The position numbers were made by a program, and so were the translations under genes. Of a DNA stretch of 64,000 nt, positions 32,666 to 32,716 are shown one piece after another (position 1 is the first letter of the stretch; the number at the start of each line of letters is the position of its first letter). Source of the DNA: Escherichia coli (GTDB lineage Bacteria; Pseudomonadota; Gammaproteobacteria; Enterobacterales; Enterobacteriaceae). The stretch lies in the NCBI RefSeq assembly GCF_001677475.2, contig NZ_CP015229.1; one strand, written 5' to 3'. A model generated the notes under the pieces. That model saw nothing but the letters and a program-made list of their open reading frames with translations. It ran no database searches and was not told the origin of the DNA.

Positions 32666-32716
32666 GGATGTCTGAAATGATGTTGTACAGAAAACTACAT
32701 ATCATTTCAGACATCC
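32666..32716. repeat. Perfect 16-bp inverted repeat (GGATGTCTGAAATGAT-N19-ATCATTTCAGACATCC) upstream of tpsA
   Basis: Read directly: arms at 32666-32681 and 32701-32716 are exact reverse complements. Confidence 0.8.

Follow-up and report, generated by a model that had tools for sequence, protein, structure and literature searches.

Upstream of otpA, the tpsA gene of the two-partner secretion system OtpAB in O-island 47 (OI-47) of Escherichia coli, a perfect 16-bp inverted repeat occupies positions 32666-32716 of the 64,000-nt stretch of contig NZ_CP015229.1 (assembly GCF_001677475.2) that was analyzed here and is referred to as the window. The repeat specifies a hairpin structure that exists, is specific to this locus and has its pairing conserved. 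Our tentatively favored reading is that it serves as a cis-acting RNA stem-loop that influences how a transcript directed towards otpAB is processed or how stable it is. That the folding molecule is RNA, that it derives from the + strand and that its role lies in processing or stability are all things that we infer.

Direct reading of the sequence showed the arms 32666-32681 (GGATGTCTGAAATGAT) and 32701-32716 (ATCATTTCAGACATCC) to be complementary at 16 of 16 positions across a 19-nt spacer, without any mismatch and exactly as described in an earlier note on this DNA, which had been made from the letters alone. Within the spacer, TGTA (32684-32687) is able to pair with TACA (32696-32699), which extends the stem to about 20 bp and leaves an 8-nt loop (CAGAAAAC). 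RNA folding, named in the same note as a check, returned a stable hairpin: the predicted RNA fold of 32650-32745 amounts to -30.9 kcal/mol, compared with -15.9 +/- 2.9 kcal/mol for shuffled sequences (z = -5.2, 0/200 shuffles as good). The opposite strand of this segment folds equally well as RNA, and the predicted DNA hairpin fold reaches -16.5 kcal/mol (z = -7.0). The arms contain about 37% G+C and the AT-rich spacer around the hairpin about 40%. A perfect palindrome of this length had been judged unlikely to arise by chance in such a spacer, and this judgment holds. In the 64-kb window, 32666-32716 is the sole perfect inverted repeat of at least 16 nt with a spacer of up to 80 nt, none of 300 composition-preserving block shuffles of the window yields a comparable repeat, and the analytic expectation is about 2e-3 per window. 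Because shuffles and analytic expectation both lie far below what is observed, the inverted repeat is real and beyond chance. The hairpin and the features to which it is related below are the following.

32641-32665, + strand: 5' flank; joined with 32717-32733 it represents the right-hand one of the two copies of a diverged, older inverted repeat (covariance-model match and local alignment).
32666-32681, + strand: 5' stem arm GGATGTCTGAAATGAT; 32667 and 32670 change from G to A jointly with their partners in a divergent clade, and none of the 12 haplotypes differs in the inner 10 nt.
32682-32700, + strand: apical part with a small internal loop, an inner helix of 3-4 bp (32684/5-32687 with 32696-32699) and the 8-nt loop CAGAAAAC at 32688-32695, as given by the RNA and DNA folds.
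32701-32716, + strand: 3' stem arm ATCATTTCAGACATCC, the site of all uncompensated changes (C32712T, A32713G, C32716T).
32717-32733, + strand: 3' flank TCTAAATTGGA, which completes the right-hand copy of that inverted repeat, then the T-run 32728-32734.
31994-32037, - strand: left inverted copy of the hairpin flanks, with about 5 nt in place of the 51-nt hairpin (covariance model and local alignment).
32740-32759, + strand: purine-rich tract AAGGAGGAAGGAGGGGGGGA just 3' of the hairpin, strongly variable between strains and polymorphic in the length of a G-run.
32980-36792, + strand: otpA (TpsA, homologue of ECs1282), the gene 3' of the hairpin (TIGR01901, 2e-22), with a likely true start at ATG 32986.

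The evidence for conserved pairing comes from 28 sequences of the element, which fall into 12 distinct haplotypes. With 92-96% identity the spacer is unusually diverse for E. coli and therefore affords some comparative power. The changes in and next to the stem are as follows.

Pair 32667/32715: G-C to A-U, changed on both sides, in the XJ34/D8/PS10-3/1604D011 clade.
Pair 32670/32712: G-C to A-U, changed on both sides, in the same clade.
Pair 32665/32717: T32717G, giving a new C-G pair at the stem base, again in this clade.
Position 32713: A to G, giving U·G, in the O157:H7/O55:H7 type and in GF3-3.
Position 32712: C to T, giving G·U, in PE164 and, on an O157 background, in GF3-3.
Position 32716: C to T, giving G·U, in 33E.
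Pair 32670/32712: G to T plus C to T, giving a U·U mismatch, in 4FM.

Across 20 pairs and all 12 haplotypes, 95.8% of the cells are paired; within the 16-bp arms there are five G·U cells and a single mismatch. The covariation score exceeds those of all 500 shuffles and of all slid controls, and we calculate a probability of 120/35960 = 0.003 that four random arm changes would land as two complete pairs. The pair 32670/32712, which is A-U in the divergent clade, is G·U in PE164, as on the classical path from G-C over G·U to A-U, and the clade that lost two G-C pairs acquired the extra C-G pair at 32665/32717. No haplotype varies in the inner 10 bp of the arms or in the pairs of 32685-32687 with 32696-32698, while 32684/32699 is U-A in only three of the 12 haplotypes. 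Six of 32 columns vary in the arms compared with about 13 of 49 in the flanks, and few stretches of the region vary as much as the 3' flank (32717-32760). As the arms are no more conserved than the flanks while their pairs co-vary, the comparison argues that pairing, not sequence, is what has been preserved during the diversification of E. coli. Note that the number of independent covariation events behind this result is small. All one-sided transitions reside in the 3' arm, where each yields a wobble pair on the + strand and would yield an A·C mismatch if read on the - strand. This strand bias suggests, on the grounds of the haplotypes, an RNA made from the + strand. As a side observation, two haplotype groups are joined in the mosaic sequence of 4FM; their switch near 32597 indicates that the spacer has undergone recombination. 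In XJ34 (locus L005, 2105-2802) an IS1 element splits otpA, yet the upstream hairpin is kept in its compensated form.

The hairpin is a single-copy element. BLAST, at thresholds that would overlook isolated 16-nt arm matches, detected the 63-nt element in 380 of 5426 complete E. coli genomes, with one site per genome that is invariably this locus, and found none in the other 5046. The suspicion that the motif might be a common repetitive element is thus not borne out. The hairpin is kept in all 380 genomes that carry the locus, and the complete 1391-bp spacer shows the same distribution, as one colinear piece in 380/380 genomes. No second copy of the repeat is present in the window, and BLAST with the 63-nt element yielded no further copies in plasmid and phage collections. 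When metagenome and viral contigs were scanned for the hairpin pattern defined by the inner 10-mers, eight homologues emerged, all of them representing this locus with known haplotypes, and about 100 further matches proved to be unrelated palindromes. A scan of viral contigs for the 16-mer gave 38 unrelated single matches, mostly gene starts reading 'ATG TCT GAA ATG' and never paired, in approximate agreement with a rough estimate for chance. At the hairpin site no Rfam family matched at gathering thresholds; the best match, mir-3047 with 31.8 bits against a threshold of 53, is a generic hairpin, and all that appears below threshold are eukaryotic microRNA or snoRNA look-alikes. Taken together, Rfam and BLAST assign the hairpin to no known RNA family, repeat family or phage sequence, and a literature search retrieved no mention of it. 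Orthologous tpsA-tpsB pairs of Kosakonia, Enterobacter, Rahnella, Buttiauxella, Klebsiella, Pantoea and others stand in different gene neighborhoods. Since the element is single-copy in E. coli and absent at orthologous tpsA loci, it is specific to the OI-47 arrangement of this species.

A short conserved inverted repeat of another kind was seen in Enterobacter mori (L009, 2768-2786, with equivalents in L010 and L011). It reads GTCTGAAT-GCCA-ATTCAGA, is located about 170 nt before tpsA and has a TCTGAA/TTCAGA core in common with the E. coli arms. As this repeat is absent from Kosakonia and 14 other loci, the likeness is probably a coincidence.

How would such a stem-loop work? In single-stranded nucleic acid the repeat would fold into a stem-loop of about 20 bp, most likely in RNA of the + strand, which is the strand of otpAB, and the hairpin would act in cis on its own transcript. 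A near-perfect duplex of 20 bp in E. coli RNA is a classical substrate for RNase III, and hairpins of this kind also shield RNA ends. Because of these properties of long near-perfect duplexes we propose a role in processing or stability, in which the stem either is cut by an RNase III-type activity or protects the transcript. The stem could form part of a long otpAB leader that starts at a distal promoter, or it could close a short non-coding transcript made upstream. The earlier note had listed a leader RNA stem-loop among its suggestions, and our reading comes closest to this one. The part of that suggestion which concerns a structure in a single strand is favored by the compensatory pairs and the + strand wobbles; a place in a leader goes beyond these data.

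Several points weigh against an RNA stem-loop acting on otpAB. Templated repair within a palindrome can create compensatory changes without selection, both compensated pairs stem from a single lineage, and haplotype 4FM has its U·U mismatch. The strand preference amounts to about five events at three sites (p ~0.03-0.12), and the argument is weakened further because C-to-T changes are biased to the leading strand. Furthermore, 32850-33000 is almost invariant among the haplotypes and can in part be aligned with the Enterobacter leader, although this alignment is uncertain. On account of this conservation the core otpA promoter may be situated downstream of the hairpin. The main mRNA would then not include the hairpin, which would have to be transcribed from a distal promoter or in a short transcript of its own. 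By our own reading, TGATAGGAT at about 32883-32891 is a candidate extended -10-like element. The accessible parts of the published start-site and small RNA (sRNA) tables for enterohemorrhagic E. coli (EHEC) contain, among the entries listed, no sense start upstream of otpA and nothing at the hairpin. Finally, 18 tpsA loci of other genera displayed no upstream nucleotide similarity in BLAST, no comparable inverted repeat and no match to the covariance model. The accessible supplements of EHEC start-site, ribosome-profiling and Hfq-CRAC papers likewise offered nothing usable on the hairpin region. The portion of the EDL933 Cappable-seq data that could be consulted (PMC10469882 supplement 7) gives antisense starts inside otpA at 1437317, 1437626, 1437886 and 1438899 of NZ_CP008957.1. 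Sigma-70-like promoter-like sites on the + strand occur at about 31849-31877 and 32200-32241 and are no commoner than in shuffled sequences.

Insight into the origin of the hairpin was gained from its flanks. A covariance-model search matched 31988-32038 on the - strand to the sequences on either side of the hairpin, with 5 nt at the hairpin's place. When 32666-32716 is removed, the reverse complement of 31994-32037 aligns to 32641-32665 plus 32717-32733 with a score of 35, compared with 22.3 +/- 2.8 for shuffles, of which 0/200 score as high; when the hairpin is retained, the 25-nt left half alone aligns, and not significantly. The two copies constitute an older inverted repeat of about 45 nt with 75-80% identity and a perfect 12-bp core (GAATAAAACAAC/GTTGTTTTATTC). 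It brackets some 600 bp of the spacer between the chaperone-usher operon loc6 and otpA, a segment with promoter-like sites on both strands that was never found inverted among the 380 genomes. The left copy is conserved among the E. coli haplotypes though 31900-32200 is otherwise hypervariable, with up to 20 variable columns per 50 nt in the 12 haplotypes. The 51-nt hairpin resides in the right copy only, with a possible 2-bp 'TC' duplication at the ends of the segment. Because a diverged inverted copy of the flanks exists without the 51 nt, the hairpin has the look of 51 bp that were added later, and precisely, to one of the two copies. This points to an origin at the DNA level, by insertion or by template switching, and does not decide about present function. 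Pairing of 31994-32037 with the flanks of the hairpin in a long-range RNA helix was considered and rejected, as our own inspection revealed no covariation and several substitutions that disrupt pairing.

Such an origin is central to the chief competing explanation, which we regard as doubtful though more credible than the other three. It holds that the hairpin is a DNA palindrome without a function that came into one arm of the older inverted repeat as a 51-bp insertion or through a template switch. It would stay near-perfect by template switching during replication, in which a change in one arm of a quasi-palindrome is copied to the other. The flank copy at 31994-32037 lacks exactly the hairpin and lends it the look of a secondary insertion, the two compensated pairs could go back to one copying event in their one lineage, and the missing transcript entries among the EHEC table rows listed in the accessible parts as well as the missing hairpin at orthologous loci of other genera are in line with this explanation. 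A pure DNA process does not, on the other hand, predict what is seen in at least four lineages, namely single changes that have stayed uncorrected and are all wobble-compatible on one strand. Moreover, long palindromes tend to be deleted in E. coli (SbcCD-dependent instability), and despite this tendency the hairpin is held in 380/380 locus-carrying genomes. A last possibility at the DNA level, to which we attach the lowest probability of all, is that the hairpin is the relic or the site of a rearrangement. It could be a minimal insertion sequence remnant consisting of two 16-bp terminal repeats, or part of a cassette of about 750 bp (31994-32733) that is or was an invertible promoter switch between loc6 and otpAB. 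The precise 51-bp extra segment relative to the paralogous copy, the possible 'TC' duplication at its ends and the inverted flanks around promoter-like sites on both strands would fit, and fimbrial operons are often under invertible switches. All of this is opposed by the single copy per genome, by the 16-mer matches in viral contigs, which occur only in unrelated contexts, at about chance frequency and never as a pair, by the unrelated nature of the other inner-arm pattern matches in metagenomes, by the colinearity of the 1391-bp spacer in 380/380 genomes, by outer repeats that are merely about 75-80% alike and by the lack of an adjacent recombinase gene. Nothing beyond the inserted look supports readings as a recombination site or mobile element. 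The recombination site proposed in the earlier note finds no backing, as neither the spacer nor the surrounding segment is inverted in any of the 380 genomes or eight metagenome contigs.

Two further explanations assign the repeat a function in regulation. That it is an operator in double-stranded DNA, with two identical half-sites for a dimeric or tetrameric regulator such as the ToxR-like GrvA or another regulator of the island, and controls otpAB and/or loc6, is unlikely. Its perfect dyad symmetry, its position between two divergent adhesin-type operons in the regulatory DNA that they share and the invariance of the inner 10 bp per arm in all haplotypes speak for an operator; and if the otpA promoter lies near 32880-32900, as we would place it, the repeat would be situated about 180-230 bp upstream of it. 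The half-site centers are, however, 35 bp or 3.3 helical turns apart rather than the usual 10-11 bp, and the mirror positions 32667/32715 and 32670/32712 in the outer 6 bp of the arms co-vary, which is unexpected for protein contacts. GrvA belongs to a class, the ToxR/OmpR-type winged-helix proteins, that typically binds direct and not inverted repeats. In addition, matches to the half-site CTGAAATGAT show no enrichment elsewhere in the window (10 with up to one mismatch compared with 6.1 +/- 2.4 expected). The operator for a dimeric regulator that the earlier note had put forward is thus not supported. Somewhat less probable again is an intrinsic terminator or attenuator, in which hairpin and T-run would stop a + strand transcript from about 31877 or 32227-32241 and thereby either form the 3' end of a non-coding RNA or control how much transcription continues into otpAB. 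A strong stem followed by T7 at 32728-32734, sigma-70-like + strand sites upstream and the same + strand wobble pattern are compatible with this. The T-run, however, begins 11 nt past the stem base at 32716 and not after 0-2 nt, the stem is long (16 bp, or 20 bp with the inner helix) and AU-rich, the length of the T-run and the spacer differ between strains, and a terminator scan calls nothing at the hairpin. A canonical intrinsic terminator is therefore unlikely.

The hairpin was also compared with known systems. It resembles the leaders of rnc and pnp and the 5' stem-loops of ompA, which are processed by RNase III or protect RNA ends, in being a nearly uninterrupted duplex of about 20 bp before a coding region and on the coding strand, and here the pairing is kept via compensatory and wobble changes. 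In contrast to those leaders it is known from sequence alone, precedes the start codon by about 265 nt and may even precede the core promoter, and has no sequence in common with any described element. With Rho-independent terminators and attenuators it shares a stable stem-loop followed by a T-run, but these have GC-rich stems of about 5-12 bp, a short loop and a U-tract after 0-2 nt, while the hairpin has 16-20 bp, is AU-rich and is separated from the T-run by an 11-nt gap. Operators of dimeric regulators, e.g., the 20-bp lux box of LuxR-type proteins, are likewise perfect dyads in promoter-proximal intergenic DNA. The hairpin differs in spanning 51 bp, in its 35-bp center-to-center distance, in the co-variation of mirror positions and in having no more copies in the island. 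REP/BIME, ERIC/IRU and miniature inverted-repeat transposable elements (MITEs) are also short, palindromic and intergenic and also look inserted relative to paralogous sequence, but they occur in many dispersed copies, whereas the hairpin is single-copy in each of 380 E. coli genomes and belongs to no family found elsewhere. Quasi-palindromes produced by template switching share the perfect palindrome, the double changes at paired sites and the look of an insertion; the hairpin departs from them in that its arms lack an identifiable template nearby and that one-sided changes persist with a bias to one strand. fimS is an invertible switch that controls a fimbrial operon. Unlike it, the hairpin has its 19-nt spacer in the same orientation in 28/28 sequences, and there is neither an inverted segment nor an adjacent recombinase.

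The genes efeO-efeB of the window show 98.4% identity to E. coli, which assigns the window to this species in the broad sense. Comparison with Sakai and EDL933 identified the region as OI-47 of EHEC O157:H7. OI-47 and GrvA have been described (PMC8565820, PMC10877973). The gene order is dgcT, a gene for an EAL-domain phosphodiesterase, a FidL-like gene, grvA for a ToxR-like regulator and an oxidoreductase gene, followed by the six-gene loc6 chaperone-usher operon on the - strand (ECs1276-1281). Beyond loc6, otpA and otpB (ECs1282-1283) and then a fatty-acid/polyketide-like cluster follow on the + strand. A domain search confirmed GrvA as an OmpR/ToxR-type winged-helix protein. OtpAB has been described as a genuine two-partner secretion system whose function is listed as unknown and that is possibly accessory to loc6 (bioRxiv 10.1101/2020.04.13.038984; PMC5422565). 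The hairpin resides inside the 1391-bp non-coding gap between ECs1281 and otpA, 1077 bp from ECs1281. It corresponds to 1349763-1349813 of NC_002695.2 in Sakai and to about 1436048-1436098 of NZ_CP008957.1 in EDL933. Its distance to the start of otpA, given as about 265 bp in the earlier note, is 263 nt for the annotated GTG at 32980 and 269 nt for the ATG at 32986, two codons further on. The ATG aligns with the start in Kosakonia (M/V-I-N...), matches the start coordinate 1436367 given for the gene in the EDL933 start-site table and is probably the true start of otpA. The ECs1281-like protein of 207 aa is without a Pfam or NCBIfam match and offers no clue to a regulator. No recombinase is annotated from grvA to ycdU in Sakai and EDL933, no conserved open reading frame lies within 31590-32980, and no ops/JUMPStart element is present upstream of otpA, so that control by RfaH is not backed. 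A 66-codon open reading frame at 32723-32923 was rejected as coding, since homopolymer indels break it in other strains.

Some further observations concern the DNA between the hairpin and otpA. The homopolymers 3' of the hairpin vary by strain, from T6 to T8 at 32728-32734 and between G7, G6 and TG5 at 32752-32758. Several GGA motifs occur in the purine block AAGGAGGAAGGAGGGGGGGA, part of which is complementary to a pyrimidine tract at 32331-32350. In the invariant block before otpA two direct repeats, ATTTCAGCTTATTTTCCGTGA (32845-32865) and ATTTTTGCTGATATTCCGTGA (32903-32923), are found 58 bp apart, and a similar ATTCCGTAA precedes tpsA immediately in Enterobacter; these repeats are candidate sites for a regulator. 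A second imperfect stem, ATCATTTTTGCTGAT/GTCATCAAAAGTGAT, was noticed at 32900-32938, with U·G wobbles that pair on the + strand only and with a change, G32924A, that turns U·G into U-A in the divergent clade. As a structure it was rejected because it folds no better than shuffled sequences. Downstream of otpA, 88 nt separate its stop from the start of otpB. Most of this distance is taken up by a 16-nt inverted repeat (36797-36812/36852-36867, 14/16 complementary, 39 nt apart), which could be an inter-cistronic RNA structure that tunes the relative expression of the two partners. Elsewhere in the window, gathering-level Rfam matches were obtained for Ysr251 antisense RNA (11851-12044, - strand, 192.8 bits) and for the sRNA ES056 (59191-59282, - strand, 119.7 bits), and a tRNA-Ser(GGA) is encoded at 53503-53590, close to the right end of the island.

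What does the hairpin mean for the biology of OI-47? The OtpAB system adjoins the loc6 fimbriae and the virulence regulator GrvA, and a literature search found no description of its regulation. An element before otpAB that is conserved in structure would give direct access to the question of what activates this otherwise silent locus or keeps it off. In an extended version, which we hold to be improbable as a whole, the hairpin would be the key element of an OI-47-specific post-transcriptional control of OtpAB, for instance as a gate that depends on RNase III or on antitermination and is located in a leader of at least 300 nt or in a small RNA derived from the leader, and it may then act within the inverted-repeat-bounded cassette of about 750 bp and couple otpAB to the divergent loc6. 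Otherwise, the hairpin is a new instance of a familiar, ordinary kind of element. It provides a clean, small case of compensatory evolution within a species, with a G·U intermediate that is still segregating, and its inserted look relative to the paralogous flanks bears on the way in which new hairpins arise.
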